Of a stretch of DNA of 32,000 bases, positions 3-27,500 are shown piece after piece. A model generated the notes under the pieces. The model was not told the origin of the DNA, made no database searches, and saw only the letters and a list, made by a program, of their open reading frames with translations. Location of the stretch: contig JAFGBS010000014.1 in assembly GCA_016933055.1 (NCBI GenBank), positions 182,568 to 214,567 on the forward strand, written 5' to 3'. Each line of letters starts with the position of its first letter. Within the stretch, counting starts at the first letter, position 1. The position numbers and the translations under genes were made by a program. Source of the DNA: Promethearchaeota archaeon (GTDB taxonomy: Archaea; Asgardarchaeota; Lokiarchaeia; Sigyniarchaeales; Promethearchaeaceae).

Positions 3-1634
3 TTCAATCATCAAACCAAAATTGCCGTATCTGCTTCACCACAGATTGACCAAGTTACTTTTAACCTAGCAAAAAATGAGTATTATGCTTTCCAATTAGG
101 ATTAACTCTAAAATCAAAAGATCTATACTTCCATTCCTACTATTTAACCGATTTCGTGGGAGTTGAGAATAGTTTAGAAGTAATCTCATCCGATTTTGCT
201 CAATTACGATATGAAGATTATATTTTAGAAGAGGAATTTCCTGATAGACTTCTTCCTATAGAGGGAAATCCAATTCTGTTGAATAAAAGACAAACCCACA
301 TGTTTTGGTTTGATATTCGTACTCCTTATAATATAACAGCTGGTAATTATGCAGGAATTCTCAAAATTACCTTTAAATTAGGAGACCGATATCTTGAAGA
401 GAACATTCCCATTCGTTTTAATGTATGGGATTTTGCAATACCTTTTCGAAAACATGTAACCACTAGTGTGGGGGATGAAAGTGTTTCATCCGATGAGATA
501 TACAATCAAATGGTTGAAAGCTGGCATAAGCATCGATTTAATATGTATGCCGAAGATATCAAAGGAACGGATGACTATCGTGTATTTGAAATTTATAATG
601 GAGAACGCTATATCTATTACTTAAACAAGACAGATGGATCCGTTACATTCAATTGGACACTTTGGGATCAGAAAATCGAGGCTCTCTTAAATGTTACAAA
701 TGCTCCGATGAATGGAATTCGAGTAGATTATAGCCTGGGGAGAAGTCTAAAAATTGGCAATGAAACGGAAAATCAATGGTTTCTCAATTGGTTAATCGAA
801 GTAGAACAACATTTAGAATTGAGAGGATGGTTAAATATCTGCTATTATTACTTTGTAGATGAATTTACCTTATTTATCCCCGAAGAATATGAAAACCGAA
901 CCGCTTATTATGAAGCGGTAGAAGCACAACTCGCATCCATGAGATCTGTAGCACAAAAAATACGGATATTAGTAATTGCGCCCCCTCTTCCCGAATTGGA
1001 ATCCATTAAGCCTTACATTAACATCTATGTACCCTTGAGTTACGATCGAAATGTAGAACAATGGGAACAAACGAAAAATAGGGATAAAAAGGAGATGTGG
1101 TTCTATACTTGTATTGGACCTTTCGCACCCTATCCCAACGTCCACCTTTACAATCGACTCTTCGAAACACGTATACAAATGTGGAATACTTGGGCATGGG
1201 ATATGGATGGATACCTCTTTTGGAGAGCAAATAGTTTTAATCACGGACAATATGGATTTGGGTATAATTCATGGGGGGATGGATGGTTCATTTACATAGA
1301 TGAAGCGGAAAATCGAATATATGAGTCCATCAGATGGGAGAATCTCGGGGATGGACAAGAAGACTATGAAATGTTCTGGTTATTAAATGCTACTCTTAAT
1401 GAAATAGAAGAAAATGAGTTATTAGCACAAAGCGAGATAGATTTTTATCGGTCGGAACTCTATACAATAGTAAACACAGTTTCGGATGATTTTTTGGACT
1501 ATACTAATAATCCTCATGATATCTATTGTGGTATCGAGAGAATTGGACAAATTCTCCATTCCTTATCGCCAGTTATAGATATAAATGCAATTGGAGAAGC
1601 TCCTTGGTTTCCAATTTCAGGAGTAATCCCATAA
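3..1634 (+). CDS. DUF4091 / glycoside hydrolase family 123-like protein, 5'-truncated by the window edge
   Basis: The frame is open from position 3 (FNHQTKIAV...LAKNEYYAFQLG...), so the GTG at 156 is probably internal. Motifs AKNEYYAFQL, YYYFVDE, WFYTC, GYLFW and ESIRWENLGDGQEDYE match the recalled DUF4091/GH123 pattern (A-x-NE-x-x-x-FQ, DEP-like acid, WxY, SxRxExxRxGxEDYE). Confidence 0.7.
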   Translation, partial: FNHQTKIAVSASPQIDQVTFNLAKNEYYAFQLGLTLKSKDLYFHSYYLTDFVGVENSLEVISSDFAQLRYEDYILEEEFPDRLLPIEGNPILLNKRQTHMFWFDIRTPYNITAGNYAGILKITFKLGDRYLEENIPIRFNVWDFAIPFRKHVTTSVGDESVSSDEIYNQMVESWHKHRFNMYAEDIKGTDDYRVFEIYNGERYIYYLNKTDGSVTFNWTLWDQKIEALLNVTNAPMNGIRVDYSLGRSLKIGNETENQWFLNWLIEVEQHLELRGWLNICYYYFVDEFTLFIPEEYENRTAYYEAVEAQLASMRSVAQKIRILVIAPPLPELESIKPYINIYVPLSYDRNVEQWEQTKNRDKKEMWFYTCIGPFAPYPNVHLYNRLFETRIQMWNTWAWDMDGYLFWRANSFNHGQYGFGYNSWGDGWFIYIDEAENRIYESIRWENLGDGQEDYEMFWLLNATLNEIEENELLAQSEIDFYRSELYTIVNTVSDDFLDYTNNPHDIYCGIERIGQILHSLSPVIDINAIGEAPWFPISGVIP

Positions 1635-1697: not shown

Positions 1698-4265
1698 ATG
1701 TCTAATAATTTTCAAATTATTGAAGGATTTGCGAGTACAGACGCCAAACCTCATTATCCTCCTAACTTGCAATTAGAACCCATACATCAGGCTATTAAGC
1801 TGACCTTTAATTTAGAAAAGAAAATTGCATGGGGATCTGTGACCACTACGATACGTGCAAATTCTGATAATGCAACAACAATAAAATTTGATGCCATCGA
1901 TTTCACGATCAAATCTGTACAAGGAGCGGATTCCTATTCTTATGATGGCGAAAAAGTCACCATGACATGGAATACTGCTTGGAAGAGAGGGCAAATTCAA
2001 GAAATAGTTATTCAGTATTCAATTGAAGAACCCCTATCTGGATTGTATTTTTCTTATCCCGATGATAAATATCCTAACCGAATAGCTTATGTAGTAACGG
2101 ATCACGAAACAGAACGTGCACGCTATCATATTCCATGCATAGATCATCCCGCGATTCGCTGTTCTATTGATTTTTATCTGACTGCAAATGAGAAATATAC
2201 AATTCTTGCAAATGGAAGGTTAATCGAAGAAGGTAAGAATGGCGACGGAACTAAAACAGCCCATTGGAAGCAAAAATTCCCTTGCCCTTCCTATTTGATT
2301 ACTTATGCAATTGGAGAGTTCGTAAATTTCACCGATAGTGTGGTAGATGCAGGTAAAGGGTCCATTCCCATTGCTTATTTTACGACTAATGACTTCACAT
2401 CTGAAGCCCTTAAGCGTACCTTTGATAGAACTCCCGAAATGCTTGAGTGGATGACGAAGAAATTTAAATGCCCCCTCGAATGGGATAAATACTACCAAAT
2501 TATTACTCCTCATTATGCTGGTGCCATGGAAAATATCTCAATGGTAACTTGGGGATCCTTTGCACTGTTACATACCGAGGATGTTGCGAAGGAGTTATGG
2601 TGGAGAATAGATGCTATTAATGTCCACGAGATGTCACATTCGTGGTTTGGAGATATGATTGTTATTAGAGAGTTTACCCACGGATGGCTTAAGGAGTCTT
2701 GGGCTGTATACACCGAAAGTTGCTATTATGAAGATACGAGAGACGAGGATGAATGGAAATATAATATGTATAATAATTCACTTAGATACAGAGAAGAATC
2801 TGACTCAAAATATGCCAGACCAATTGTTAATAAGACATATGATAGCAGTTGGGATATGTATGACCGTCACTTGTATCCAGGTGGTGCATGGAGGATTCAT
2901 ATGCTTCGGCACTTGATAAAAAACCATGTAAGTGATGAGTGCTTCTGGGAGGCTGTATCAGATTATTTGAACACCTATAAAGGGAAAGTAGTTGAAACTA
3001 TAGATTTTCAGCGAAAACTAGAAGAACACTCCGGATTAAGTCTTCAATCGTTTTTTGATCAATGGTTATATTCTCCCGGTTATCCAAAACTGAAAGTTAA
3101 ATTTAACTTTGACGAGAAATCTCACTTAGCATCTCTTAAACTTGACCAAACACAAATTGATGAGAAAAAAAACATTGGTGTATTTCAGTTTCCCCTGGAA
3201 ATTATGTGGGAAACAGAGAATGGATCGTTTGAACGGGAAAAATTCATTATTTCTGAAAAAGTGCAAACCTTGTATTTCAAATGTGTTAAAAAACCCAAGC
3301 AGATACGTATAGATCCTGATTATGTACTATTATGCTCGTTAGAATTCAATCCAGGTACAGACATGCTAAAACAGCAATTGAAAACGGGTGATAGTATTGC
3401 GAAAATCCAAGCAGCAAAGGAATTAACAAAAACGGGAAAGAAAAAAGACTTGGAAACCGTATTTCATGCGTATCGGGATGAAAAATACTGGGGGACTAAA
3501 GTGGAGCTAGCGAAATTATTGAAAGAGTCTCCCTCTTTATACGGAATGCGTCTTCTTAGGGATTTATTAGAAGACGAATCGGATCCATTAGTGCTGACTT
3601 CCTTGATTCATAATTTTGCAAATGTCAGGGAATTCTTTGTATTTGATGCAATGAAGAACTATTTAAAACGACCTGTACACTATCCCTATGCTACAGCCAC
3701 TGCTTTAGAAGTAATTGGCACTATGCGAACGGATGAAGCGTATAAATTTTTAAACACCTATTCCCCACCTAAGGATCCTAAAAATATCGTTAAATCGGGC
3801 TTATATCGAGCAATAGGGAGTATTCGTACTGAGCAAGCTCTCGAATATCTGGTAAAGAAGATCCCATACGGTGAAGACGCAGAAAATTGTCGTTCAAGTA
3901 TAGCTTCTGCTCTTATTTCCTCTCTGAGTTGGATGAAGGAATCCGTAAGGAATCGGTATCTGGAAAAACTAACGGATATCATCCCCGGAGAGACTAACGA
4001 ATTATTCTTGCATAATTTAGCTCGAATTATAAGCACCGTTAAGGATCCCTTGGTAATTACTGCGTTGAAAACGATTAAACGAAAACTAGCGAAACAAGAT
4101 AAACCAGAGATCGATCGATTAATCCAAAAAGTACAGAAAAGCTTAAGTACGGAAGAAGAAATTCGAAATCTAAAATCAGAAATAGATTCTGTTAAGAAAT
4201 CATTGAAGAATTTGAAAGAAGTGGTAGAAAAAATCGAAGCGAGAACAGCACCGGAAAAAAAATAA
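1698..4265 (+). CDS. M1-family zinc aminopeptidase with C-terminal HEAT repeats and a terminal coiled coil
   Basis: GAMEN exopeptidase motif (YAGAMENIS), HExxH-x18-E zinc motif (HEMSHSWFGD...WLKE) and catalytic Tyr region (DRHLYPGG). The C-terminal ~300 aa is helical and HEAT-like, ending in the heptad EEEIRNLKSEIDSVKKSLKNLKEVVEKIEAR. Confidence 0.95.
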   Translation: MSNNFQIIEGFASTDAKPHYPPNLQLEPIHQAIKLTFNLEKKIAWGSVTTTIRANSDNATTIKFDAIDFTIKSVQGADSYSYDGEKVTMTWNTAWKRGQIQEIVIQYSIEEPLSGLYFSYPDDKYPNRIAYVVTDHETERARYHIPCIDHPAIRCSIDFYLTANEKYTILANGRLIEEGKNGDGTKTAHWKQKFPCPSYLITYAIGEFVNFTDSVVDAGKGSIPIAYFTTNDFTSEALKRTFDRTPEMLEWMTKKFKCPLEWDKYYQIITPHYAGAMENISMVTWGSFALLHTEDVAKELWWRIDAINVHEMSHSWFGDMIVIREFTHGWLKESWAVYTESCYYEDTRDEDEWKYNMYNNSLRYREESDSKYARPIVNKTYDSSWDMYDRHLYPGGAWRIHMLRHLIKNHVSDECFWEAVSDYLNTYKGKVVETIDFQRKLEEHSGLSLQSFFDQWLYSPGYPKLKVKFNFDEKSHLASLKLDQTQIDEKKNIGVFQFPLEIMWETENGSFEREKFIISEKVQTLYFKCVKKPKQIRIDPDYVLLCSLEFNPGTDMLKQQLKTGDSIAKIQAAKELTKTGKKKDLETVFHAYRDEKYWGTKVELAKLLKESPSLYGMRLLRDLLEDESDPLVLTSLIHNFANVREFFVFDAMKNYLKRPVHYPYATATALEVIGTMRTDEAYKFLNTYSPPKDPKNIVKSGLYRAIGSIRTEQALEYLVKKIPYGEDAENCRSSIASALISSLSWMKESVRNRYLEKLTDIIPGETNELFLHNLARIISTVKDPLVITALKTIKRKLAKQDKPEIDRLIQKVQKSLSTEEEIRNLKSEIDSVKKSLKNLKEVVEKIEARTAPEKK

Positions 4266-5034: not shown

Positions 5035-6813
5035 TTACATACTAGGACGCATATGCTGAGGAGGAGGTCTTAAACAGAAGCCACATTTACCAAAAGAGAT
5101 TATGGTCTGATTCCAGCAGTGTTCATGATATAAGCGTTCGCAACTTGGGCACTGAGTTTGACACTGATCATGAGAGTCACCAGTACTGGATGAGATCTTC
5201 AACCCACATTCGGGACAATCTATTTTATGGCAGATAACACAACTAAGTATGGATTCAGCGAAGATTGTCTGAGATATCTGATTGAAAAGATCAATTAAGT
5301 AGTTAAAAGGATGCCATTGCTGGGTAAAGGACTGAATTTGATTGTTGATTTTTTCTTTTATTTCTTCATACTCTTCCAATGCTGATAGAAGCTTGAAGTG
5401 AGGAACTGTTATTGGATATTCATCATTCATTTGGACCTCGAATGTGAATGCCAGATCTTTAGTTTTTAGTTGACCAGATATTTCAATTGAAAATTTGTCG
5501 GTAGTTTTATCATAATCAACCTTTTTTACTCCCCCTTTCAGTAGATCTACTTCAAAACTTATGCGAGATGCCTTGTCAACCAACCAAGAAATCTCTCGTA
5601 ACACATCCACAACGTGGCTCTCTTTTCTCTTCCAATTTTTTAATACCATCAGATCTTGAGGGGAAAAAGGAAGGACTTCTTGCAATGCTGATGAAAACTG
5701 AACTAAAGGCTCGTTAGGATATTTTGAAATATCTAATGTAAGAATATATTCTTTAAATCCGTATGTAAATAAACCTACTTGAAGATGGGAAATTAAACCA
5801 TCTACCATTTCTGTCTTGTATTCCCCAAAGATCATTTTAGCCTCCTGTTCAATGTCACTCAAAAACCAAAGTTTTCCCTCAACCTCCCGAATTAATTCCA
5901 CAACATGACGGGGATTGTTCTCATCCCATGACTTCAAGATTCCAATAGATTCGTCAACATCCCCAAGGATCTTTCTTAAATTATCTTGAACCACCACTTC
6001 TGGCTTCTTTGGAAACGAAGAAAAGTCAATACGAATGATAAAAGTCTGTTCGAGAGTAATCGTAAGATACACTTCCACAACTCCCATAGTATTTCCAACA
6101 TAATCAATAGCGTATTCTTGCTGAATTAGCGCGGCTTCGGTTGATACTTTTACATCCAGTTCGGCATCTAAATTTTGTGCTTCGATGGACGGATATATAG
6201 GTCGTTCGGTGGGGGTGAGTGCGGGTACATTGTAAGGATCTGCTGAGGGATCCAAAGTTGGGTAAATGGATTCATTCTCTGGTACCTCTTCTTCGGAATT
6301 CCATTCTAAAATTTCATCGGGATTGATATATTCCTCTTGTTCATATAGATATTGACTCATATCGGGAGTGAGATATTGTTCCTCTTCATCCTTTTCTTGT
6401 TTATACGATTGTGATGACAATTCTTCCGTACTGAATTCTGCATAGGTAGGTTGGACAGATGGTTCCTCAGTAGATATATATATTTCCTTCTCCTCTTCTT
6501 GCTGTTCAACATAATTTTTAATTAGTACCGCTAATTCTCGTACTGCTGTGACTACATGACTTTCAGGAGTCCAATTATTCAATGCATTAAGTTCAATTTC
6601 CTCCGGAACATTGGGAATTGGGAGGGGAAATATAAAATCTGGTGGGTAAGTAGGAAAATCTTTGGTATATTTTATCTCTAAAGGATATTTTGTTTCCTTA
6701 TTGGGGGATTCATAAATGTATCCATATAAATGTCGGAGATTTCCTTTAACCATATAAAACTTGAATTCGGAAGCAATTAATTGTGCTTCATGGAGTAATT
6801 TTCCATTTTCCAT
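5035..6813 (-). CDS. Multi-UBC/RWD-fold protein with C-terminal C4HC3 RING finger (putative E3 ubiquitin ligase)
   Basis: Four related domains: the first three share EA-x-[LM]I-x-x-E[FY]...[FY]P-x-x-P...W...HVV-x-x-x-RE, and the fourth is more divergent (EYPITVP...WHP). C-terminal CPEC...CPSC-x4-H-x2-CW...CGFC. The ATG at 6813 (MENGKLL) is preferred over the TTG at 6891. Confidence 0.8.
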   Translation of the reverse strand: MENGKLLHEAQLIASEFKFYMVKGNLRHLYGYIYESPNKETKYPLEIKYTKDFPTYPPDFIFPLPIPNVPEEIELNALNNWTPESHVVTAVRELAVLIKNYVEQQEEEKEIYISTEEPSVQPTYAEFSTEELSSQSYKQEKDEEEQYLTPDMSQYLYEQEEYINPDEILEWNSEEEVPENESIYPTLDPSADPYNVPALTPTERPIYPSIEAQNLDAELDVKVSTEAALIQQEYAIDYVGNTMGVVEVYLTITLEQTFIIRIDFSSFPKKPEVVVQDNLRKILGDVDESIGILKSWDENNPRHVVELIREVEGKLWFLSDIEQEAKMIFGEYKTEMVDGLISHLQVGLFTYGFKEYILTLDISKYPNEPLVQFSSALQEVLPFSPQDLMVLKNWKRKESHVVDVLREISWLVDKASRISFEVDLLKGGVKKVDYDKTTDKFSIEISGQLKTKDLAFTFEVQMNDEYPITVPHFKLLSALEEYEEIKEKINNQIQSFTQQWHPFNYLIDLFNQISQTIFAESILSCVICHKIDCPECGLKISSSTGDSHDQCQTQCPSCERLYHEHCWNQTIISFGKCGFCLRPPPQHMRPSM

Positions 6814-6956
6814 TTTGAATACCCGAGTTTTTGAATAATAAAGGCTTAAATAGTGCTTTATATCTTGTCCAACAACAAAAAGTGAAGACAATAACTATAA
6901 AATACCGATATGTCTATAAACTGTACAAAAAAAGGGAAAAAAGAAAATCTCATCAT

Positions 6957-7166
6957 TTATTCTTCGAATTTGAAGGATAGGTTCACGCGCGCTCGGTACA
7001 TAACAATTTCATTATTCAAAATCTTCGCATCAAGTTTAATTACTTCTGCAATACGTAGATCCCGCAATGTTTTTGCTGCTGTCTCAACTGCATTATGAAT
7101 TGCATCTTCAAAACTTGTTTCAGAGGAGCCCACTAATTCAATAAACTTATACACAGATTCTGCCAT
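6957..7166 (-). CDS. Dodecin family flavin-binding protein
   Basis: 69 aa with the typical dodecin pattern VYKFIELVGSSETSFEDAIHNAVETAAKTLRDLRIAEV...YRARVNLSFK. Confidence 0.9.
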   Translation of the reverse strand: MAESVYKFIELVGSSETSFEDAIHNAVETAAKTLRDLRIAEVIKLDAKILNNEIVMYRARVNLSFKFEE

Positions 7167-7432: not shown

Positions 7433-10400
7433 ATGCGAGATTTAGGAAAACTCGATTCCCTCCAGTTGGAAGAGAGAATACTCAAGTGGTGGGAATGCGA
7501 AAACATATATGAATTAATTAAGCAAAATGAACCCGAAAAACGCGTTTGGCGTTTTATAGATGGTCCTCCCTACACAAGTGGGGATGTGCATCTTGGAACT
7601 GCTTGGAACAAAATAATGAAAGACTTATTGATACGTTACAAGCGAATGCGGGGCTATAAGGTACTGGACACCCCCGGATATGATACACACGGGCTCCCAA
7701 TTGAAGTCGTAATGGAAAAGAAGCTCAATATTCACAACAAACAAGAGATTATCGATTACGGCTTAGATAAATTTATTGAAGAATGTCGTAAATATGCAAA
7801 AAGCATGATTCCCATAATGAATGAACAATTCAAGAGATTGGGTTGCTCATTTTGGGATTGGGAACACCCCTATGTCACCTATGAAAATACATACTTACAA
7901 GGTGCATGGTGGACATTAAAAAAGGCACATGAAAATGGATATTTATATAAATTCTATAAACCTCAGAATTGCTGCCCCAGATGCGCCACAGCATTAGCGA
8001 AGCATGAATTTGAATATGCAAATATAAAAGATACAGCCATTTTCGTAAAGTTCCAGACCATTGAGGACCCCAAAACCTTTTTTGTGATTTGGACAACAAC
8101 TCCGTGGACTCTTGTTGCTAACACCAATATTATGGTCAACCCCGATATTGAATACGTGGAGATGCGTGTAAAGGATGAAACGTGGATAATGGGGATAGCT
8201 GCTACCACAAATTTGCTGCAAAACAAGATGGGATTACCTTTAAACAAAGATGAGGGATTTTCCTACGGTAGGAGATTCAATGGTAGAGAATTGGAAGGAA
8301 AACGCTATATCCATCCTCTTGGGGATGAAGTTCCAATGCAAGCGGAACTTGAGAAGAAACAGCCCAAAGTACATACCGTGGTTCTCAGTTCGGAATTTGT
8401 ATCGGAAGGGGAGGGTTCGGGTCTTGTGCATACCGCCCCCGGTCACGGACCTGAAGATTTTGAAGTAGGTGTCAGAAACGAAATTCCCATTTTTAATCCT
8501 GTAGATCTCTCCGGAAATTATACTGAGGAAGGAGGATATTTCGAGGGGAAAAATGTTGCGGACACGAATGAAGAAATTATCGATATCTTACATAAGAAAG
8601 GTACTTTGCTTCATCAAGAGGAAATCGTACACGAATATGCTCATTGTTGGAGATGCAAAACAAAATTAGTGTACCGTGCTACCGAACAGTGGTTTCTTTC
8701 TTCCTCTGCGATTAAAGATCGAATGATCGAACTGAACCAAGATGTTTATTGGATCCCCGACCAAGCAGGACATTTACAGTTTGAGTCATGGTTGCAAAAT
8801 CTTCAAGATTGGTGTATATCTCGACAGAGATATTGGGGAATTCCTATACCGATCTGGGAATGTACAAATGAAAATTGCGACCATCTAGAAGTAATTGGTA
8901 CTGCAGAGGAGTTGGAACAAAAAGCAGGTAAGATCCCGGAAGATTTGCATAAACCTTGGATCGACGAAGTCGAGCTTCGATGCGATAAATGTGAAGGTGT
9001 CATGAAACGAATTTCCGATGTTCTGGACGTATGGTTTGATTCGGGATCGGTGATGTGGGCAGCTCAAAAATTCTATGACGGGTACATTCATTACGATACA
9101 TGGGAAAAAGCTGATTTTATCATAGAGGGAAAGGATCAAATACGCGGCTGGTTTAACTCATTACTTGGGTGCGCGGTATTAACTTCTGACCGCCGTAGTT
9201 ATGATGCTTGCTATATGCACGGATGGGTTTTATCCCATGGTATTAAGATGTCTAAATCTCTCGGAAATAAAGTGGAACCGAGAGATGTGATCGAGGGAAA
9301 AGTAGAGATCCTTACAGAGCGGCAAAAAGAGCTGCTTCGTGAAGAAGCCCGAGAAATAGAAGCTTCCAAATTTGAAAAAACAAAAAAAAATTTAACTAAG
9401 ACACGAATTTCTAAGAGAAAAAAGAAATATATCAAAGATGATAAACGCTGGTCAGATATCAAGGGAATTGAAACATTTAGGTTTTATTGTGTGACTGCAG
9501 CTGCGCCAGGTGCTGATTTCAGCTTCAACTATAAAGAATATGTGGATTCATATAAAGTGTTGAATACATTATGGAATTCATATGTATTCGCTCAGGAAAA
9601 AATGAGTTTAAACGAGTTCGATCCCCTCAAACACAAATTCAAATGGGAGGATTTAACCCTCGAAGATAAATGGATAATTTCCAAAACGAATGTAGTAATA
9701 AAGGAATTATCTCAGATCTTAGATTCCTATGAGCTTCCGAAATTTCCACAAAGGTTACAAGATTTTATCCTAAATGATGTATCTAGATGGTATATCACCT
9801 TAATACGAGAAAAAGTTGAACCCCGTAGTGAGGATCCCCTTAAAATTCAGACCCTTGCTGTATTATGGTATGTATTACATCGACTTTTACTGGTATTATC
9901 CCCTTTAAATCCGATGATTACAGAAGAAATTTATCAAAAAATGTTTGTAGATCATTTAAAAAATCCGAAGAAATCAGTACATCTCGAGAAATGGCCAAGA
10001 ATTCAAACTAAGCGAATTAATTCGGAAATTGAAGAACAGATGGAACTTAGTCGTCAAATTATAGAGGCAGTTCGTTCATTGAAAGCTGATAATAAAATTA
10101 AATTACGTTGGCCTACCAAAGGTTTGATTATTGTTCCAAAAAAGAATATTCCAGATTTACAATTGATGGAGTTGATACAGAATATGGCTAATGTGAAAAC
10201 TGTACGAATAGCCAAAGAGACTCCCGAAGGCAAGAATTACACATCTGTAGACCATGTTATAGGAAAATTGATTTTAGATCTTAATGACACTGTAGAATTG
10301 CAACGTGAACGTATTTTAAGGGATTTACTTCGCACATTACAACATTTACGAAAAATAAATGATCTAAAAACTGGTGAACCAATTCAAGTCATCCTAGCTA

Positions 10401-10684
10401 CGAAATCCGATTTCGCATTTGATACATTACAGCAAAATGAACCGGAAATTCGATCGAAGATCTCTGCGGAATCTTTTACTATTGAAAGAGAAATTCACTC
10501 GGAAGAAAACGGATGGATACATCACCAATTTTATTTCTGTTTGAATAAGGGATGTTATGCAAGTATCCGGAAAAAGCACATCGATAAAATACGCGAGGGA
10601 AAGGACTATAGTTGTGATTATTGTGAAAAACTAGTGACTGAAGAAAATCTTGGAGAGATTGACATAAGATTTAAAAAATTATGA
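7433..10684 (+). CDS. ileS: Isoleucyl-tRNA synthetase, archaeal/eukaryotic type
   Basis: DGPPYTSGDVHLGTAWNK (HIGH region), WTTTPWTL editing motif, GSGLVHTAPGHGPED, DWCISRQRYWGIPIP, EGKDQIRGWF and KMSKSLGN; 1083 aa. Confidence 0.97.
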   Translation: MRDLGKLDSLQLEERILKWWECENIYELIKQNEPEKRVWRFIDGPPYTSGDVHLGTAWNKIMKDLLIRYKRMRGYKVLDTPGYDTHGLPIEVVMEKKLNIHNKQEIIDYGLDKFIEECRKYAKSMIPIMNEQFKRLGCSFWDWEHPYVTYENTYLQGAWWTLKKAHENGYLYKFYKPQNCCPRCATALAKHEFEYANIKDTAIFVKFQTIEDPKTFFVIWTTTPWTLVANTNIMVNPDIEYVEMRVKDETWIMGIAATTNLLQNKMGLPLNKDEGFSYGRRFNGRELEGKRYIHPLGDEVPMQAELEKKQPKVHTVVLSSEFVSEGEGSGLVHTAPGHGPEDFEVGVRNEIPIFNPVDLSGNYTEEGGYFEGKNVADTNEEIIDILHKKGTLLHQEEIVHEYAHCWRCKTKLVYRATEQWFLSSSAIKDRMIELNQDVYWIPDQAGHLQFESWLQNLQDWCISRQRYWGIPIPIWECTNENCDHLEVIGTAEELEQKAGKIPEDLHKPWIDEVELRCDKCEGVMKRISDVLDVWFDSGSVMWAAQKFYDGYIHYDTWEKADFIIEGKDQIRGWFNSLLGCAVLTSDRRSYDACYMHGWVLSHGIKMSKSLGNKVEPRDVIEGKVEILTERQKELLREEAREIEASKFEKTKKNLTKTRISKRKKKYIKDDKRWSDIKGIETFRFYCVTAAAPGADFSFNYKEYVDSYKVLNTLWNSYVFAQEKMSLNEFDPLKHKFKWEDLTLEDKWIISKTNVVIKELSQILDSYELPKFPQRLQDFILNDVSRWYITLIREKVEPRSEDPLKIQTLAVLWYVLHRLLLVLSPLNPMITEEIYQKMFVDHLKNPKKSVHLEKWPRIQTKRINSEIEEQMELSRQIIEAVRSLKADNKIKLRWPTKGLIIVPKKNIPDLQLMELIQNMANVKTVRIAKETPEGKNYTSVDHVIGKLILDLNDTVELQRERILRDLLRTLQHLRKINDLKTGEPIQVILATKSDFAFDTLQQNEPEIRSKISAESFTIEREIHSEENGWIHHQFYFCLNKGCYASIRKKHIDKIREGKDYSCDYCEKLVTEENLGEIDIRFKKL

Positions 10685-14764: not shown

Positions 14765-16681
14765 ATGATTGCACAACGGTATCGAACCCATTTGAAAAAA
14801 GTTTGTCCCGCGATAAATCAATGTATAGCTACAGCTAAGACTACTGATTCATTGTTTATAGTTACTGGAGATATCGAACACAATGTAACCGTTTATAATG
14901 AGCAGCTTGAACAGATTCAACAAATCCCTTTTAAAGGTTGGATCCGATGCTGTGATGCATACGATATTGATCACAATGGAAATCATGAAATTGCTATAGG
15001 TTCCGGAGATAATTCTGTACGTGTATTTCGCTATGAAGAAGAAATCGGATATTCTGAATTGTGGAGGTATGATTTTAACAATAAAGTCACCACCATTACG
15101 ATAGGGGATATTAATTATGATGGACGCGCGGAAGTTATCGCAGGTGGATGGGATAATTCTCTCAAAGTTTTTGATGGGTTGACCGGAGTTCTTCTTTGGG
15201 AATTGACTTTCGACGATTGGGTTACCCTTGCAAAAGTTTTGGATGTAAACCATGATGGATTACCAGAAGTTGTTGTAGGCTTAAAGAAAGGACAATTTGG
15301 AGTAATCAATGGAATCACTGGAGAATGTTTATGGGATCATTTATTCCAAAAAAGGATCAACGCATGTGATTTAGTTCATCTAGCCAACAATCCTTACCCT
15401 CACCTGCTTGCCGGAGGAGATGAAAACATATTATATATTTTCGATTTTGAGGGTAATTTGGTGAATAAATTGGAAACTCCAGATCGAATCTTGTGTATTT
15501 CTCACGGTGATATCAATAAGGACAACTACAATGAAGTACTTCTAACATTAGCAGACAAACGATTATATGTGTATGAAAGTGAAGAAACCGGATTACCAGA
15601 AAACACTTCCTTAAAAATCCGATGGAGAGCTACATTAGATAACGTGGGTATGGGGTTAGTCATGTCCGATCAATTTAAAGATAATATTCCTCGAATAATT
15701 GTTACGGGATATTCCAAGGATGTTCGTATTCTTGAGGATTTTTTTTATGGAGCTGATTCTCAGAGAATACAAATCGAAGATTCGAACTATATCCCCCCAA
15801 AATTATCGAATCATGAGAAAAAAATGCGAGATTTAATGGGAACGGATGTAGATTTAGAATTTTTTAACGAGCCGAATGCTTTTTTTTTTCCAAAAAAAAT
15901 TGAAACTTTGAATCAGCTTATTCCCTCACAATTTGAATCGAAATCGGAAAGCTTCACCTTCATGAATCTAAAGGAGATATATGAGAATAAGTATCTTCTG
16001 GAACGTCAAATCGAACAAATAAGGAATGAAAATTTAGGAAAAGCAAAACCATTAGTTACATTTCCATCCCGCATTTGTAATTTGAACGAAATTCATGACT
16101 ATAGCAACAAAATCGAGGTTCACACAAGTGTGATGAAATCGGTTTCACAAAAGTCCGAAAGCATACCTACAGTGGAGTCATATAACGAAACCGATACTTC
16201 TCTCAAGATAAAATTCATTGAGATATTAAATTCAACGGAAATCATCAGTTCTAAAGCAAAAATGCAAGACCTTATGGAAGAGAATGGATTTACTGAAGAA
16301 CAATTCGAAAGAATCTTCACGATATTAAAAGATGAAGAAGGTATACTGACGTATAGTCGTTCAACTCCTCGTGGATATAGCATCTCAGTACAAGAAGCTC
16401 CTGCCGAAATTACTGAATCTTCCGTTACGATTAAAATTGAAGAAAGAAAGACTGTTTCAATTGATATTGAACCGAAAGATAGAGGTTTGGGTCTTCCTAA
16501 TGAAGCTTTTTTCGACTTGATTAAAGAAAATCAGCCCGTCAGTTCAAAAGATAGACTTCTGGAACTTGCTGAATCTATTAATATTGACAAAAAAACTGCA
16601 GAACAATTAATTGAGCAATTTAAAGAACTTGGTGTAATAGAATACTCAAGAAGCACACCGCGTGGATGGTCTACTATTTAG
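14765..16681 (+). CDS. FG-GAP-like beta-propeller protein (BBS2/ITFG-like blades) with two C-terminal winged-helix-like repeats
   Basis: About 7 blades in the first ~330 aa, with D-x-[DN]-x-[DN]-G loops (DIDHNG, DINYDG, DVNHDG, DINKDN) followed by E-[IV]-x-x-G-x-x-D-x-x-[VL]-x-[VI]F. No signal peptide is visible. Two repeats end YSRSTPRGYSI and YSRSTPRGWSTI. Confidence 0.75.
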   Translation: MIAQRYRTHLKKVCPAINQCIATAKTTDSLFIVTGDIEHNVTVYNEQLEQIQQIPFKGWIRCCDAYDIDHNGNHEIAIGSGDNSVRVFRYEEEIGYSELWRYDFNNKVTTITIGDINYDGRAEVIAGGWDNSLKVFDGLTGVLLWELTFDDWVTLAKVLDVNHDGLPEVVVGLKKGQFGVINGITGECLWDHLFQKRINACDLVHLANNPYPHLLAGGDENILYIFDFEGNLVNKLETPDRILCISHGDINKDNYNEVLLTLADKRLYVYESEETGLPENTSLKIRWRATLDNVGMGLVMSDQFKDNIPRIIVTGYSKDVRILEDFFYGADSQRIQIEDSNYIPPKLSNHEKKMRDLMGTDVDLEFFNEPNAFFFPKKIETLNQLIPSQFESKSESFTFMNLKEIYENKYLLERQIEQIRNENLGKAKPLVTFPSRICNLNEIHDYSNKIEVHTSVMKSVSQKSESIPTVESYNETDTSLKIKFIEILNSTEIISSKAKMQDLMEENGFTEEQFERIFTILKDEEGILTYSRSTPRGYSISVQEAPAEITESSVTIKIEERKTVSIDIEPKDRGLGLPNEAFFDLIKENQPVSSKDRLLELAESINIDKKTAEQLIEQFKELGVIEYSRSTPRGWSTI

Positions 16682-17040: not shown

Positions 17041-19203
17041 TTACATCGATTCTTGTGCATCTGATGGCTTTCCAGTTCCAGAAAGCTTGTATTTGATCTC
17101 AAATCGGTCTCCAGATTCGATCTTTTCAATCTTCCATTTCAAAACATCTAATCCTTCTTTCTTGGTTACTTCAACCGGTTCTAGGCTCAAACCGCTATAT
17201 TCGAAATTCTCTGGTACTTTGTCTGCTACTTCAAAATTTCGGAGCACATAATCACCTGTATTTACGACATACAAGATAATCTCATATTCTCCTGTTGCTG
17301 CAAGACCAATAATTTCTTTACCACGGATCAATCTCTTTCTCACATGGATTACTGGAATTTCAATAACAGCAGGTCGTACTTCAAGTGCTTTTCCAGCGGG
17401 GTATGTGTTAGCTTGGTAGAGCACATCAGAGGTGTAAATAACTGTTTTATTTGGCTTGTCCGCAACAATGGGATAAGTTACTTGAATAATATCTCCTGGT
17501 TTAAATGCACCCAATGGTTTTTCTTTCAAGTCTTTCAGTTCCACTGTAACTCCATCCCTGTTAACAATTATCGTATCGACCTCAATTTCATCTCCATTAT
17601 AAGTTACTACGACATCACTTGTTTCAGGCGGTCTAAATCCATCTTGGATATTTTCAGTGAGAATAACCTCATTAAGATCCGCTCCACCCGTGTTCTCTAC
17701 TTTCATATTCACATGAAAAGTACTTTCTCGGAAGGAGGCAAGTTCTTTTTCATCATAAGATAGTTCCCCTGCAATTGAAGCAACGGCTAGTTCTACATCA
17801 TTGATTTCCATCAAACCCTCGGTGGACACCATATGGTCCGCTATCACGAAGAATTGTACCTTTGTCATAAATACGGGTTCTTGTCCAGGTTCCGATTGGT
17901 ATTCCCAAATATTGGATTTCCATTTTGCACCCTCGGGTAGAGGAGGAACCTCACCAGGATCGATGTCTACATACTTCACTGAGGGATTCTTGACGTCATA
18001 CACATCGGCATTTACTAAACGAAGTAAATATTCACTTTTATTTTCAAAGACAAACTGGCATTCATATTTATCAGGTCTCTCATCAGTTTCATAAAATCCC
18101 TCATAGAATGAATTATTCGTGTATGCATCAAATTTGTCGATACCTAAACCACTCAAGGTAATAGGAGCGTTGTATTTAACGAATATCTTACCAGAACGTA
18201 CTTTTGTGTCTTTATCTTTGACTTTTACTTCTAACTTAAGTTCAAGTTTTTCTTCAGCATTGGGTTTGAGTTCTTCTAATACCCATTTTACACCTCTACC
18301 TTCATCAAAATTTCCTTCATCCGCTTTTCCACTACTTGATCGTAAAACTTTTGCACGTTCAAACAAATCAGGGATGAGTTTAGTTACTTCGATATTTTCA
18401 AGTTTGACATCCGTAATGTTCGTCACGATGATGGAATAATAAATTTCATTATCAGCATCTAAGACTAAAGAATAACTCTCCGTGTCTGGATCATTTAAGG
18501 TGCTAATGAACTCGGAAACGTCAATATGTCGTGCAGCTTTTTCCTTTACCTCATAGGTTTTCTCTTCTTTTTCCCCAGGAGCCAGCTCATAAATAGATAT
18601 TGCCTCCTCCTCAAAGTCCGTACTGTCGATGTTTTTAAGACTTAAATCAATATCCCATAGTCGATCTTTTGTACTTACATTTTCAATACTGAACATACCA
18701 GAAGTGACACTTTCTTCTGCCGCATCAGTTCCGTCATGTTCTAAGTAGATTTTGCTATTTTCTAAAATTTTAACTGGTACAAGCTTCCCCTCTTTCTTTC
18801 CCGGAGTAAGTTTGATTACGCCTTCCTTCTTACCAGAATCGCGGTCGATCGTCTGAATTTCGTCGGATTCGTAAGCCATCTTTCCGCTATCCATTTGTTT
18901 TCGCTTGTAATCTTGTGCTTCTGCATATTCTTTGCGTTCGTCTGCCCCAAAGCCTAATTTCCCTTGGAGAGACTTGATTTTTTCAAAGTAATCGCTGATT
19001 TCAGATGAAGTGCTTCCCCTAATTCGTTCCTCAGTTCCTTTATCGATTGAATCTCTTATGATATTCACGGAGTCTGTTGATAAATCAGAAGTTAAATTGG
19101 AATATTTACCAAAAAGAGCTTCTGAACTGATATTCAAATTAGCTTTAAAACTTCTTCGTCCTATCTCAACGATTCCTAAGGGTCCTAAATCTAATTTTGC
19201 CAT
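17041..19203 (-). CDS. Cytoplasmic multi-beta-sandwich protein with a mu-homology-domain-like segment and DUF11/Ig-like repeats
   Basis: ATG at 19203 (MAKLDLGP) follows an AGGTTGA SD-like site. Three V-x-N-x-x-x-x-x-L-x-x-x-x-x-x-x-x-[IV]P/Q-x-x-F units are present. There is no signal peptide or TM helix. Motif order resembles the mu-adaptin C-terminal domain (see findings). Confidence 0.7.
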   Translation of the reverse strand: MAKLDLGPLGIVEIGRRSFKANLNISSEALFGKYSNLTSDLSTDSVNIIRDSIDKGTEERIRGSTSSEISDYFEKIKSLQGKLGFGADERKEYAEAQDYKRKQMDSGKMAYESDEIQTIDRDSGKKEGVIKLTPGKKEGKLVPVKILENSKIYLEHDGTDAAEESVTSGMFSIENVSTKDRLWDIDLSLKNIDSTDFEEEAISIYELAPGEKEEKTYEVKEKAARHIDVSEFISTLNDPDTESYSLVLDADNEIYYSIIVTNITDVKLENIEVTKLIPDLFERAKVLRSSSGKADEGNFDEGRGVKWVLEELKPNAEEKLELKLEVKVKDKDTKVRSGKIFVKYNAPITLSGLGIDKFDAYTNNSFYEGFYETDERPDKYECQFVFENKSEYLLRLVNADVYDVKNPSVKYVDIDPGEVPPLPEGAKWKSNIWEYQSEPGQEPVFMTKVQFFVIADHMVSTEGLMEINDVELAVASIAGELSYDEKELASFRESTFHVNMKVENTGGADLNEVILTENIQDGFRPPETSDVVVTYNGDEIEVDTIIVNRDGVTVELKDLKEKPLGAFKPGDIIQVTYPIVADKPNKTVIYTSDVLYQANTYPAGKALEVRPAVIEIPVIHVRKRLIRGKEIIGLAATGEYEIILYVVNTGDYVLRNFEVADKVPENFEYSGLSLEPVEVTKKEGLDVLKWKIEKIESGDRFEIKYKLSGTGKPSDAQESM

Positions 19204-19356
19204 TATAATTTCAACCTTTTTTATTTTTAAAAATTTTAAAGGATAATACATGATCATCTTTGGTCCTAAAAAAAATGAGCTTTTTTTTTTAAGAAAAAGT
19301 GCGATCCTCTATTCACGTATCGATGCAGAGCAGTTTTCTTATGGCTCTATTCTTCG

Positions 19357-22667: not shown

Positions 22668-22825
22668 ATTTGATTTCAAGATCTAGAAATATCTCGTATA
22701 AAAAATCATTTAGGGATTTGTTACGTAGATCCAAGTAACGGATAAAATTTCATTAATACTAGGTTACTTCCAAACGCAAAAAAGGAAAACACTCGAACGA
22801 GATTAAACCTAAGAAAGTGACAGAG

Positions 22826-23194
22826 ATGAGCGAAGAACAGTTAAATTTCATATTGAAAACTTTAATGAATGAAGTTGATGGCATACAGAGTGTTGCATTA
22901 GTCTCACGAGAGGGTTTAATTGTAAATTCGATTTTGGAAGAAGATGTCTCCCCTATGCATATTGCTGCAATGTCGGCAATTATACTCTCCACGTGTGAGA
23001 GAGTATTATTGGAGTTTAAAAAAGGAGAGCTTGATGTATGTATTATTCAAGGAACTGAAGGTAAATTTATCTGTATGGAATGCGGTGAGGATTTTATTTT
23101 AGTATGCGTATTGCAAGAAGATGCACGTATGGATATATGTTTCACAAAAATGCGTAGTACGGTTGTAAAAGTTGTTGAACTTACCGAGGAATGA
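22826..23194 (+). CDS. Roadblock/LC7 domain protein
   Basis: About 122 aa: LNFILKTLMNEVDGIQSVALVSREGLIVNS...IAAMSAIILS...IIQGTEGKFI. The ATG at 22826 is preferred over the GTG at 22817. Confidence 0.92.
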   Translation: MSEEQLNFILKTLMNEVDGIQSVALVSREGLIVNSILEEDVSPMHIAAMSAIILSTCERVLLEFKKGELDVCIIQGTEGKFICMECGEDFILVCVLQEDARMDICFTKMRSTVVKVVELTEE

Positions 23195-24559: not shown

Positions 24560-27500
24560 TTACTTATCTTTTAATTTCCAACCAATTGGTTTAGTTTTTG
24601 TTTCAAATCCAATCTTATTCTCTTTACGGAGTTTTTCGAAAACCTCTTTAATCTGTTCCATTTCTGCTTCTATCCCATGATCTTTCAGCGCTTGGTCAAT
24701 AGCTTTCCATAAATCATTCTTGGAACGGATGGTTTGCTCTCTAATTTGGTGAATAGTCGTTTTTTCGATATTTAATTCGATAGAATCCTTCTCATCAATG
24801 ATAAATTTCTCTTGTTCATCTTGAATTTTCTCTTCTAACGTATCCCTAGTTTCTTCTTTTTGGGTGGGATCTTCTTGTGATTCCGTCTCTTCTCTTGATG
24901 TTTCCTTATGTTTTCCTGATTGTTCTTCTCCTTCCTCATCAATATTCTCTTCTTTGCTCTTTTCTGTGGTATCTGTAGCCTCTGTTTCGGTTGTTTCCAC
25001 CTCTTCTTTCTCTTTTTCCAATAAATCTTCAAAAGTTTCCTCTTCTTCGGTAATTTCTTCTTGCTCCACTTTCCTTTCAATGTCTTTTATCATTCTTTTG
25101 GATTTTCTGCGTTTACGTGTTGCAATAAGGGTAATGGAACCCGTTACTACTATAAGTCCAAAACCAATTGCTCCGTATGGAAACCATTTTGATAATTGCG
25201 AGCTAATGTTTATAGATCCATTATATATACTAGTTTCAGAATCAAAGGTCTCAGAGAATATAACACTGAATAAGAGTATTGAATCCGAGGATGGTACTGT
25301 AAACGTAAAAGTAAGTACTCCTTCCGTGTTACTGACTTGAGATATGTTAAGGCTACCGATTTGCAGCTCCACTGTTGCGCCACCTAAAGATGTCCATTCC
25401 GTACTTCCATCTGGGCGGTATTCAATAATGAACCTGAAACTTGTTTCAGTGCCAGGTGTAATTTTAGTTGGTAAGGTGGCCATTGGAGAAATGCGTATTT
25501 CATTTTTGTTAAGTACATTTACAGTAAAGGCAACAGAAGTATTGTGGAAATACGTACGGTTGAGATTAAGATTAAAATTAAGGATGGGAGTCGCGATGTA
25601 AGTTTCTGGAACTATTATCTGGTAGGAGTTCTCGATATAGGTTCCGTAAAAAGAAGTGCCACCTAAGATTAGCTCTGCAATCCCATCTATTAATTCTGAA
25701 TTCGTATAATTATCAATGAGATGGACTAAAATAATGAGATCGTTCCCAAAATAGGCAAATTCGAACGCTAAGTTTTCTTCCTCCATACTATGACCATAAT
25801 CCTGCACTTCCAAGTTTTCATATCTAGTGTCACGATAGGTTATAGTCACAGTAAATTCATCTATTAGGGGATCGAATTCATCGGGATTTAATTCTACTTT
25901 AAAGACATAATCTCCTTCTAGTAAATTTATCGGGATGTTCCAAATTGCGGTTCCATTCTCATTTGTTTCAGCAAGGAACCAATATTGAGTGCCCATAATA
26001 GAAAGATTTACCGTGGTATAAGAAGCAGGTATATCATAAGTGGTTTCTTGGAAAGTATATTGAATCAAGCTGCTTGAACCGCTATATAAGCGATAATGAT
26101 TATCGTCCAATTGCTCTGAATTCTGCCCAAATTGCTGGATCAATTCAAATTCTGCACTACCATTAAGTTTCTGTAATAAAATATTGTAGGTGAACACTTG
26201 TGATTGGTACCCAAGGAGCGTGAATTCAAATCGTGCATAAAAATAACCGAAAGAAATGGAATCCAGATTTAAAATCCATCGGAAAATGTTATTAAATGTG
26301 TCTACAGTAGCTTCACTATTATAAGTTCCATTGATATACAGAGATGCAGTAGCAGCATTAGATAGAAATATGGAATTATTTATATCCCAATACCCAAATT
26401 CGAAAGTTATATTGTTAAATAACTTATAAGCGGTTAGGAAGTCTCCATTTTGCGTAAGATTGCCATCATATCCTGGTATTTGATGATAAATTCCCACTTC
26501 TGTGTAATTAGTTGGCAAAACCCTGACAATTAGAAAGAAATTGAAACTTACCGAATCATAATCTAAACGTTGGAAATTTATTGTAACTAATATTTTGGTA
26601 TTCAGAATTAAGTCATCGGATGGGAAAAGGAATGAATAATTCCCATTAGAAAGATCTGAACCGAGAACTGGAATTCCATTATATATTAAATTACAAGTTG
26701 CACCTACTATCCCTATTGAATTATTTGTGTCAAAATATGAAGCAAACACTTGCACATCATACACTTTAAATCCATTAAAAGAGTTATCTGCAATTGTGTA
26801 TACTAGGGTATCAGTTTCATGACCAAGATGATCGGGTTGTATGATATCATCGAAGGTATAATCTGTGGGTATAAAGGTGGTGTTAATCGTGAATTCATCC
26901 GTGTGATTTTCATAATGAAGTTTTTGTATGGTTATGGTTATTGTATAAACTCCTTCTGTGTTTAAATCTGATTCGGGAATAATCCACAGATACAATCCAT
27001 TGATGTCACTGACGGAGTTGTAGTTTTTTGAATTTAGAGCAAGTCGATGCACATCTGCATTTTCGATACCTACCCCATTTTCTGTATCATAATATTCATA
27101 GAATATTTGTATTCCATATCGAGTATATACAACATAATGACTTCCTTGTAATGGTAATGGATTTGGAGTATGATCGGTTTGAGTTATGGTTGTGAATGAT
27201 AAGGTGGTTGGTAAAACCTGCAGCGTGAGATTAAACTGTAAAGATGCGGTTTGGTAGGTAGACAGTGTAAATGTTACGGAAATCAAATACATTCCCTCCT
27301 CCAGGTTTAGAGTCGGAATAGTCCATGTATAGTTTCCTTCGAATTCGGAATCAATGAAAATGGTTCCACTATTGAAAGAAAGTGTGGGATTTGCACCAGA
27401 AATATATGCAGTATTGTTGAGATCGTAGAAATATATTGATACTTCTGTGTCATACGCGTTATAGGCCACAAAATCAAAACTTGGTTCTCCATTTTGAGTC

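Follow-up and report, generated by a model that had tools for sequence, protein, structure and literature searches.

A candidate RING-type ubiquitin ligase with an array of non-catalytic E2-like folds in a Lokiarchaeial genome

A 32,000-nucleotide stretch of a Promethearchaeota archaeon genome (GenBank assembly GCA_016933055.1, contig JAFGBS010000014.1, positions 182,568 to 214,567; hereafter the window) contains, on its reverse strand, a coding sequence (5035..6813; 592 amino acids plus the stop codon at 5035-5037) for a protein in which four folds resembling ubiquitin-conjugating enzymes (E2s) are followed by a C-terminal zinc finger of RING type. This protein is fairly likely to be a RING-type ubiquitin ligase (E3), or an E3 scaffold, of the Lokiarchaeial ubiquitin system. 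A first-pass annotation, made from the sequence alone, had described it as a substrate-recruiting RING E3 with four inactive E2/RWD folds and a possible kinship to FANCL. The folds, the zinc-ligand pattern and the gene context of relatives speak for such an E3, with ligase activity itself standing as a prediction. The ATG at 6813 was chosen as the start codon because the equivalent methionine begins all 43 aligned homologues; an upstream TTG at 6891 was dropped on the same grounds. The gene is present in one copy in its genome (3.76 Mb in 36 contigs, 91% complete).

All of the repeat motifs from which four domains had been read were found in the translation. These are HEAQLIASEF, TEAALIQQEY and QEAKMIFGEY; DFPTYPP, SFPKKP and KYPNEP; WTPESHVV.., WDENNPRHVV.. 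and WKRKESHVV..; and, in the fourth domain, EYPITVP...WHP. The structure was modelled with AlphaFold2 using a 43-sequence alignment; a single-sequence run, with a predicted local distance difference test score (pLDDT) of 36, was not used. The model shows four ordered domains (residues 1-109, 214-315, 317-428 and 431-521; block pLDDT mostly 80-94), each of which passes from a helix through a beta-meander into further helices. In the model, the repeats take up the alpha/beta E2/RWD fold that had been supposed for them. Profile-profile comparison of the domain sub-alignments linked the first domain (D1) to the second (D2; 97.8%, P 9e-13) and to the third (D3; 97.0%), and D2 to D3 (98.5%, P 4e-15). 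At 97-98.5%, the resemblance among D1-D3 is not due to chance and the three are mutually homologous. The fourth domain (D4) was linked to D1 only (80%, P 1e-5). At profile level, D1 and D4 each also resemble the active E2 encoded in the same genome (93.6% and 91%, respectively), and D1 scores above the Pfam UQ_con cut-off (29.1 versus 27 bits).

The individual domains, all encoded on the reverse strand, differ in character. D1 (residues 1-109; 6487..6813) is a UEV-like pseudo-E2 with a full UBC fold in which the catalytic cysteine is replaced. D2 (residues 214-316; 5866..6174), the duplicate of D1 and D3, is a non-catalytic UBC/RWD-like fold that occupies the position of the ELF domain of FANCL in the collinear structural alignment described below; D2-type domains also occur alone, in many other proteins and architectures. 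D3 (residues 317-428; 5530..5865) is again a non-catalytic UBC/RWD-like fold and forms the first half of a double-RWD-like pair, which in an exhaustive structural search was covered by KNL1 (model residues 330..525) and by the double RWD (DRWD) of FANCL (316..516). D4 (residues 429-521; 5251..5529) is an RWD-type fold that carries the EYPITVP (YPxxxP) motif and is packed before the RING. The hallmarks of the RWD domain (PF05773), namely an alpha helix, a beta-meander and a further alpha helix, the YPxxxP motif and the lack of a catalytic cysteine, are present.

None of these folds can be an active E2, as the first-pass annotation had already held. No cysteine precedes residue 525, and the column aligned with the E2 catalytic cysteine is never a cysteine in the family, being glutamine in 26 sequences, glutamate in nine, histidine and asparagine in two each, and otherwise isoleucine or serine. 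In the window protein it is E74 (codon 6592..6594, placed by a HMMER alignment to Rad6). All 43 aligned homologues have no or one cysteine before the finger, and none at the catalytic column; many members carry a single cysteine where D3 begins, a residue that the family does not conserve and that the window protein lacks. The HPN motif of E2s is likewise not retained in the family. Active E2 function is therefore ruled out by the catalytic column, and the combination of a UBC fold with no catalytic cysteine is that of a UEV or pseudo-E2.

D1 is joined to the remainder by an acidic, proline-rich, disordered linker (residues 110-213; 6175..6486; pLDDT below 50 for residues 108-215), in which aspartate and glutamate make up 26% of residues and lysine and arginine 4%. 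Among homologues the linker ranges from 64 to 187 residues. It contains a conserved short motif, QYLTPDMSQYLY (family consensus EEYITPDLNAYPPDF; 6343..6378, reverse strand), with T149 and P150 invariant and D151, Y155 and P156 kept in at least 90% of sequences; the invariant T-P sits within a conserved EEYITPDLNAYPP-like motif. A second, weaker copy, E-E-Y-I-x-P-D, lies at about 6310-6340 on the same strand. Speculatively, the motif may serve as a docking, regulatory or auto-inhibitory peptide.

The C-terminal finger (residues 522-592; 5038..5250, reverse strand) can be assigned, marginally and from alignment and model, as a predicted three-zinc RING variant in which a C-x2-C...C(+H) site is inserted into a C4HC3 cross-brace core. 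The core ligands (C525, C528, C555, C558, H563, C566, C577 and C580) show the invariant spacing C-x2-C ... C-x2-C-x4-H-x2-C-x10-C-x2-C, and three further ligands outside this core, C533, C536 and C551, are also invariant. In addition, all members of the 43-sequence alignment share H529, which is kept in at least 90% of a wider one, and H565 is found in 39/43 sequences. The ligand pattern persists after the addition of paralogues of 25% identity. With 11-12 ligands, there are enough for three zinc sites. The C4HC3 RING read by the first-pass annotation is thus correct as to its invariant core, but the invariant ligands number 11 and not eight, and an RBX1-like three-zinc variant fits better. 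In the model, strands 552-554 and 561-563 form a beta-hairpin (552-563) that is followed by a helix (564-574), so that eight ligands at RING spacing are accompanied by the beta-hairpin and central helix of a RING, the cross-bracing itself being predicted.

A profile of the finger alone had its best PDB match in RBX1 (22 bits, E about 1e-3). In the resulting alignment, C525/C528 fall on C42/C45 of RBX1, C533/C536/C551 on C53/C56/C68, C558 on C75, H563/H565/C566 on H80/H82/C83 and C577 on C94, and I527 of the finger falls on I44, the E2-contact isoleucine of RBX1. By this sequence alignment, the finger has the C-x2-C...C (+H) site of RBX1/APC11-type fingers inserted between ligand pairs 1 and 2; the RBX1 insertion aligned with the three extra cysteines forms the third zinc site of RBX1. 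Weak per-member Pfam matches among the 43 fingers were to Prok-RING_1 (37/43), zf-rbx1 (34/43), zf-ANAPC11 (18/43) and zf-RING_2 (16/43). The family threshold of zf-rbx1 or zf-ANAPC11 was not reached, the best E for zf-rbx1 being 0.1 among the 43 members and 0.002 in the wider set. PHD models were matched less often (PHD 7/43, best E 0.0078; DPF3 E 0.2-0.4), and all weakly. The RING families both outnumber and outscore the PHD matches, and they account for the extra ligands. The nearest Atlas clusters of the finger, which serve as leads only, were FANCL_C, zf-RING_2, Listerin and archaeal RINGs (scores 0.81-0.88).

The same three-zinc finger is found at the C-terminus of leucine-rich repeat (LRR) and NosD-type beta-helix proteins of 410-700 amino acids (P0274, P0288, P0291, P0297, P0303 and P0286; also G153:C498 and G154:C243). 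A recognition domain followed by a RING is the usual layout of a ligase. This suggests that the LRR and beta-helix proteins belong to a wider set of archaeal ligase candidates that combine a recognition domain with a RING.

An E3 role is also supported by gene context, since the genes of relatives adjoin those for an E1 or for a ubiquitin-like protein (Ubl), E1, E2 and deubiquitinase (DUB). In the sister orders of the class, short forms of 364-430 amino acids start at D2 and consist of three folds and the RING. In four of six sister-order loci, the short-form gene lies directly upstream of a ThiF-type E1 gene on the same strand, and one of these four loci runs short form, E1, E2 and JAMM protease; that E2 is 64% identical to the second E2 (E2b) of the window genome. 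A relative of 691 amino acids, 26% identical from D2 through the RING (E 6e-35) and carrying an additional RING at its N-terminus and one more D2-like fold, is encoded last in a co-directional run consisting of an 84-amino-acid ubiquitin-like open reading frame (Pfam ubiquitin E 0.008), E1, E2 and JAB genes. For the paralogues P0201, P0209, P0206 and P0213, gene context gave no information, the contigs being short or the neighbours unrelated. Directly upstream of the short-form gene and E1 in two sister-order genomes is a gene (L111 6032-7327, forward strand; L109 8677-9978, reverse strand) for a sugar-nucleotidyltransferase that has a left-handed beta-helix and weak eIF2B-epsilon-like matches.

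The window genome itself has a Ubl-E1-E2a-JAMM operon on another contig (C16:93130-96000; loci L002 and L005), with no RING gene in it. The Ubl of this operon is 123 amino acids long, has an acidic N-terminal extension and ends in ...PASTAGM instead of di-glycine. The gene for E2b (C22:160065-160484) lies 27 kb from the pseudo-E2 RING gene, and a second ubiquitin-like gene is also present. E2a lacks the phenylalanine that is usually contacted by RINGs; E2b keeps both the Phe and the Pro-Ala loops, to which RINGs normally bind.

From these features we infer that the RING binds an E2, that substrates dock on D2-D4 and that D1 binds ubiquitin or an E2. The three-zinc RING would recruit a ubiquitin-charged E2, the best candidate being of E2b type. 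D2 and the double-RWD-like pair D3-D4 would provide a rigid docking platform for substrate or partners, as in FANCL, RNF25 and Listerin. D1, tethered by the acidic linker of about 100 residues with its conserved TPD/YPP motif, may bind ubiquitin or pair with an E2, and might either position the acceptor ubiquitin or auto-regulate the ligase. A complex prediction of residues 429-592 and three zinc ions with E2b scored 0.37, against 0.00 for the best control; the runs agreed in at least 97% of contacts, with a partner pLDDT of at least 85. The mark for such predictions was reached by 58/80 solved complexes and 2/110 mismatched pairs, and at scores of 0.60 or under by only 7/80 solved complexes and both of the passing mismatches. 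RING and E2 are a textbook pair, and their complexes are abundant among solved structures; the pass with E2b may therefore reflect likeness only.

Several observations weigh against a ligase. Besides the weak pass of the E2b complex, the RING assignment was made from E-values that are marginal and from a model of moderate confidence in the finger (pLDDT 47-82). The position of RBX1 W87, the canonical E2-contacting tryptophan, is taken by an invariant threonine (T570), and a tryptophan, W567, lies three residues earlier and is not conserved in paralogues. Further, the gene lies outside the ubiquitin operon in its own genome and order, where its conserved neighbour encodes isoleucyl-tRNA synthetase (IleRS). 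The IleRS gene adjoins it in 61 of 80 related loci (L015-L090), directly downstream on the same strand in 56 of those; the other neighbours in these loci are sugar and polysaccharide genes. In the window, the gene is surrounded by those for Hsp20, dodecin, IleRS, peptidases and PPDK; no ubiquitin genes were found there, and a functional operon within the window is thereby ruled out. The IleRS gene of the window (7433-10684, forward strand) is adjacent to the pseudo-E2 RING gene but divergent from it, and between the two sits a dodecin gene (6957-7166). This arrangement implies that the locus has undergone an inversion.

The protein could instead be a non-catalytic ubiquitin-binding scaffold or adaptor, although we regard this as unlikely. 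Its pseudo-E2 folds would then bind ubiquitin or E2s in the manner of UEV, BRCC45 and kinetochore RWD proteins, and the zinc cluster would be structural or protein-binding (PHD-, C1- or Rubicon-homology-like). The structural matches do include tandem UEV/RWD proteins such as BRCC45 (6gvw_C, E 8e-6), CENP-O, KNL1 and Mediator subunits, and the Pfam family BRE is matched by 7/43 members (best E 5e-6). The finger also weakly matches RH_dom (43/43) as well as the PHD models, and the E2-contact tryptophan is not kept at its canonical position. However, the RBX1 alignment accounts for all 11 ligands and RING families are better matches than PHD; the finger recurs behind LRR and beta-helix domains; and relatives hold the position of the E3 in Ubl-E1-E2-DUB operons.

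A narrower form of the E3 reading, which names a substrate, is a translation quality-control ligase of the RNF25/RNF14/Listerin type, in which the RWD domains would bind to the ribosome or to a translation factor and the RING would tag stalled components. The conserved proximity to IleRS could be seen in this light. However, this adjacency is seen in a single order, where it may simply reflect an inherited gene order, the sister orders place the gene with E1, E2 and JAMM instead, and no ribosome-binding feature was identified in the protein. We therefore consider such a role improbable.

The relation to FANCL requires separate discussion. FANCL is the E3 of the Fanconi anaemia core complex and is composed of an ELF domain, a double RWD and a C4HC3 RING; its known partners are UBE2T, FANCB/FAAP100 and FANCD2/I. 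A Foldseek search with the alignment-based model, as the first-pass annotation had suggested, returned human FANCL (7kzp_L) as the top match (E 3e-9, 402 columns). The two are collinear over the whole length of FANCL, its residues 3-370 corresponding to model residues 225-591, with three UBC-like folds followed by a C-terminal RING. The next matches were BRCC45, the FANCL central domain, fly FANCL, CENP-O, Listerin, KNL1 and Mediator subunits, and the nearest non-self ESM Atlas clusters were FANCL, BRE, RWD+RING proteins and LTN1. D2 and D3 superpose on FANCL domains 2 and 3 (TM 0.67 by target); because D2+D3 and D3+D4 both superpose on the FANCL double RWD, the register is not unique. In comparison with the FANCL structures (PDB 7kzp_L, 3k1l and 3zqs), the archaeal protein has the same three non-catalytic UBC-like folds directly before a C-terminal RING with a C4HC3 core, and the short forms of its family are FANCL-sized. 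It differs in its additional N-terminal UEV-like domain on a disordered linker, in its third zinc site, and in that its folds are recent mutual duplicates with no significant similarity to FANCL sequence models.

Profile searches did not extend this likeness to sequence. The full-length, D2-to-RING and finger-only profiles find no FANCL, and among the PDB profile matches listed there were no FANCL chains, E2s and RBX1 being found instead. The FANCL Pfam models gave no significant match among the 43 members (FANCL_d1 4/43, best E 0.0059; FANCL_d2 1/43, E 0.089), and the list of the 25 families most often matched by the 43 fingers does not include FANCL_C. D1-D3 are also closer to one another than to anything eukaryotic in profile-profile comparison. 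The likeness to FANCL holds for layout and structure, but FANCL ancestry is unsupported by sequence. Membership of FANCL was not assigned because of the lack of a significant sequence match, the mutual duplication of D1-D3, the RBX1-like third site and the one-class distribution, and common descent is no more likely than the independent assembly of a FANCL-like architecture. That the protein is a true FANCL orthologue or direct ancestor-like relative acting in DNA repair is highly improbable: the collinear top Foldseek match, the Atlas cluster (FANCL is the nearest named eukaryotic one, 0.89, a lead only) and the size and domain count of the 364-430-amino-acid forms favour it, but FANCL models and structures give no significant sequence match, duplication of D1-D3 suggests an array built within the archaeal lineage, the register is ambiguous, the third zinc site is RBX1-like, the family was not found in the other Asgard classes sampled, and the context consists of ubiquitin genes or IleRS, not repair genes.

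Other known systems resemble the candidate ligase in part. RBX1 and APC11, the three-zinc RING-H2 proteins of cullin-RING ligases and the APC/C, provide the best sequence match of the finger, a marginal one (E about 1e-3). In the archaeal finger, however, the second ligand pair is C-x2-C and not C-x-H, giving the C4HC3 core, W87 of RBX1 is replaced by threonine, and no cullin-binding N-terminal strand is seen in the protein. RNF25, Listerin (Ltn1) and the RWD + RING protein of the SEA complex (8adl_C) have a single RWD and no array, together with other N-terminal domains (HEAT repeats, beta-propeller). BRCC45/BRE, KNL1 and CENP-O/P lack a RING and belong, as subunits, to deubiquitinase or kinetochore complexes. 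The small RING E3s of archaeal ubiquitin operons (Caldiarchaeum; Asgard; PMC5654768; bioRxiv 10.1101/2023.07.25.550441) are likewise archaeal RINGs encoded with Ubl, E1, E2 and JAMM, a position that relatives of the present family hold. Unlike the protein described here, with its three zinc sites after three to four UBC-like folds, those E3s are single-domain proteins with no pseudo-E2 folds.

In a 90%-clustered protein collection, at least 198 full-length homologues were found (39-69% identity), and all the named ones are labelled as Asgard metagenome-assembled genomes. The family was matched in 112 of 400 genomes sampled from the phylum, all in the window's own class, and it was not found in the other Asgard classes among these 400; in the subset of genomes with a completeness of 90% or more and a contamination of 5% or less, 30/90 have it. 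An exhaustive hidden Markov model (HMM) search of 1.84 billion representatives gave 227 proteins at E<=1e-3 and 35 at E<=1e-30. Among the best 150 of these 227 matches none was demonstrably eukaryotic, in a library that carries no names. NCBI record titles of homologues name Promethearchaeia, Lokiarchaeota CR_4 and Sigynarchaeum; some bear Thor-, Hod-, Hermod- or Odin- titles, which conflict with the GTDB-based single-class result that is relied on here. Several paralogous subfamilies exist.

A literature search found no description of a family combining a pseudo-E2 array with a RING, subscription journals and supplementary tables (e.g. asCOG lists) lying outside that search, and the protein is probably an undescribed archaeal ubiquitin ligase. 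Work on kinetochore origins has proposed that eukaryotic RWD proteins, including FANCL, radiated from an archaeal non-catalytic E2, and its Asgard inventory lists E2s, a Uev-like protein and one RWD-like domain only (PMC6601020). The other closest published statements on Asgard archaea concern UEV-Vps23 proteins and the small RING E3s (PMC9192718; bioRxiv 10.1101/2023.07.25.550441; PMC5654768). It is conceivable, if doubtful, that in this family an archaeal relative of the lineage behind eukaryotic tandem-RWD scaffolds and RWD-RING ligases (FANCL, RNF25, Listerin and the kinetochore double RWDs) has survived. If true, Asgard archaea would already have possessed a pseudo-E2 array fused to a RING before eukaryotes arose. 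Complete pseudo-E2/RWD arrays with a fused RING are found in at least one Asgard class, and in some of its lineages the gene lies within a ubiquitin operon. The archaeal ubiquitin system, whose RING proteins tested to date are all small, thereby gains a large E3 candidate with several domains. The family may offer a tractable prokaryotic model of how RWD platforms and RING fingers cooperate, of the contribution that a tethered UEV domain makes to an E3 and of whether a FANCL-like architecture is inherited or convergent.

The remainder of the window contains housekeeping genes and several eukaryote-like ones (Roadblock/LC7, BBS-type propeller, RadA); this content and the G+C of about 36% fit an Asgard genome. 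The eukaryote-like genes that lie close together encode an M1 aminopeptidase with TAF2-like and HEAT segments (1698-4265, forward strand), an FG-GAP/BBS-type beta-propeller (14765-16681, forward), a DUF11 protein with a weak adaptor mu-homology match (17041-19257, reverse) and a Roadblock/LC7 protein (22817-23194, forward). A giant open reading frame of 2457 amino acids (24560-31933, reverse), with no Pfam match at E<=1e-3, runs past the end of the window.

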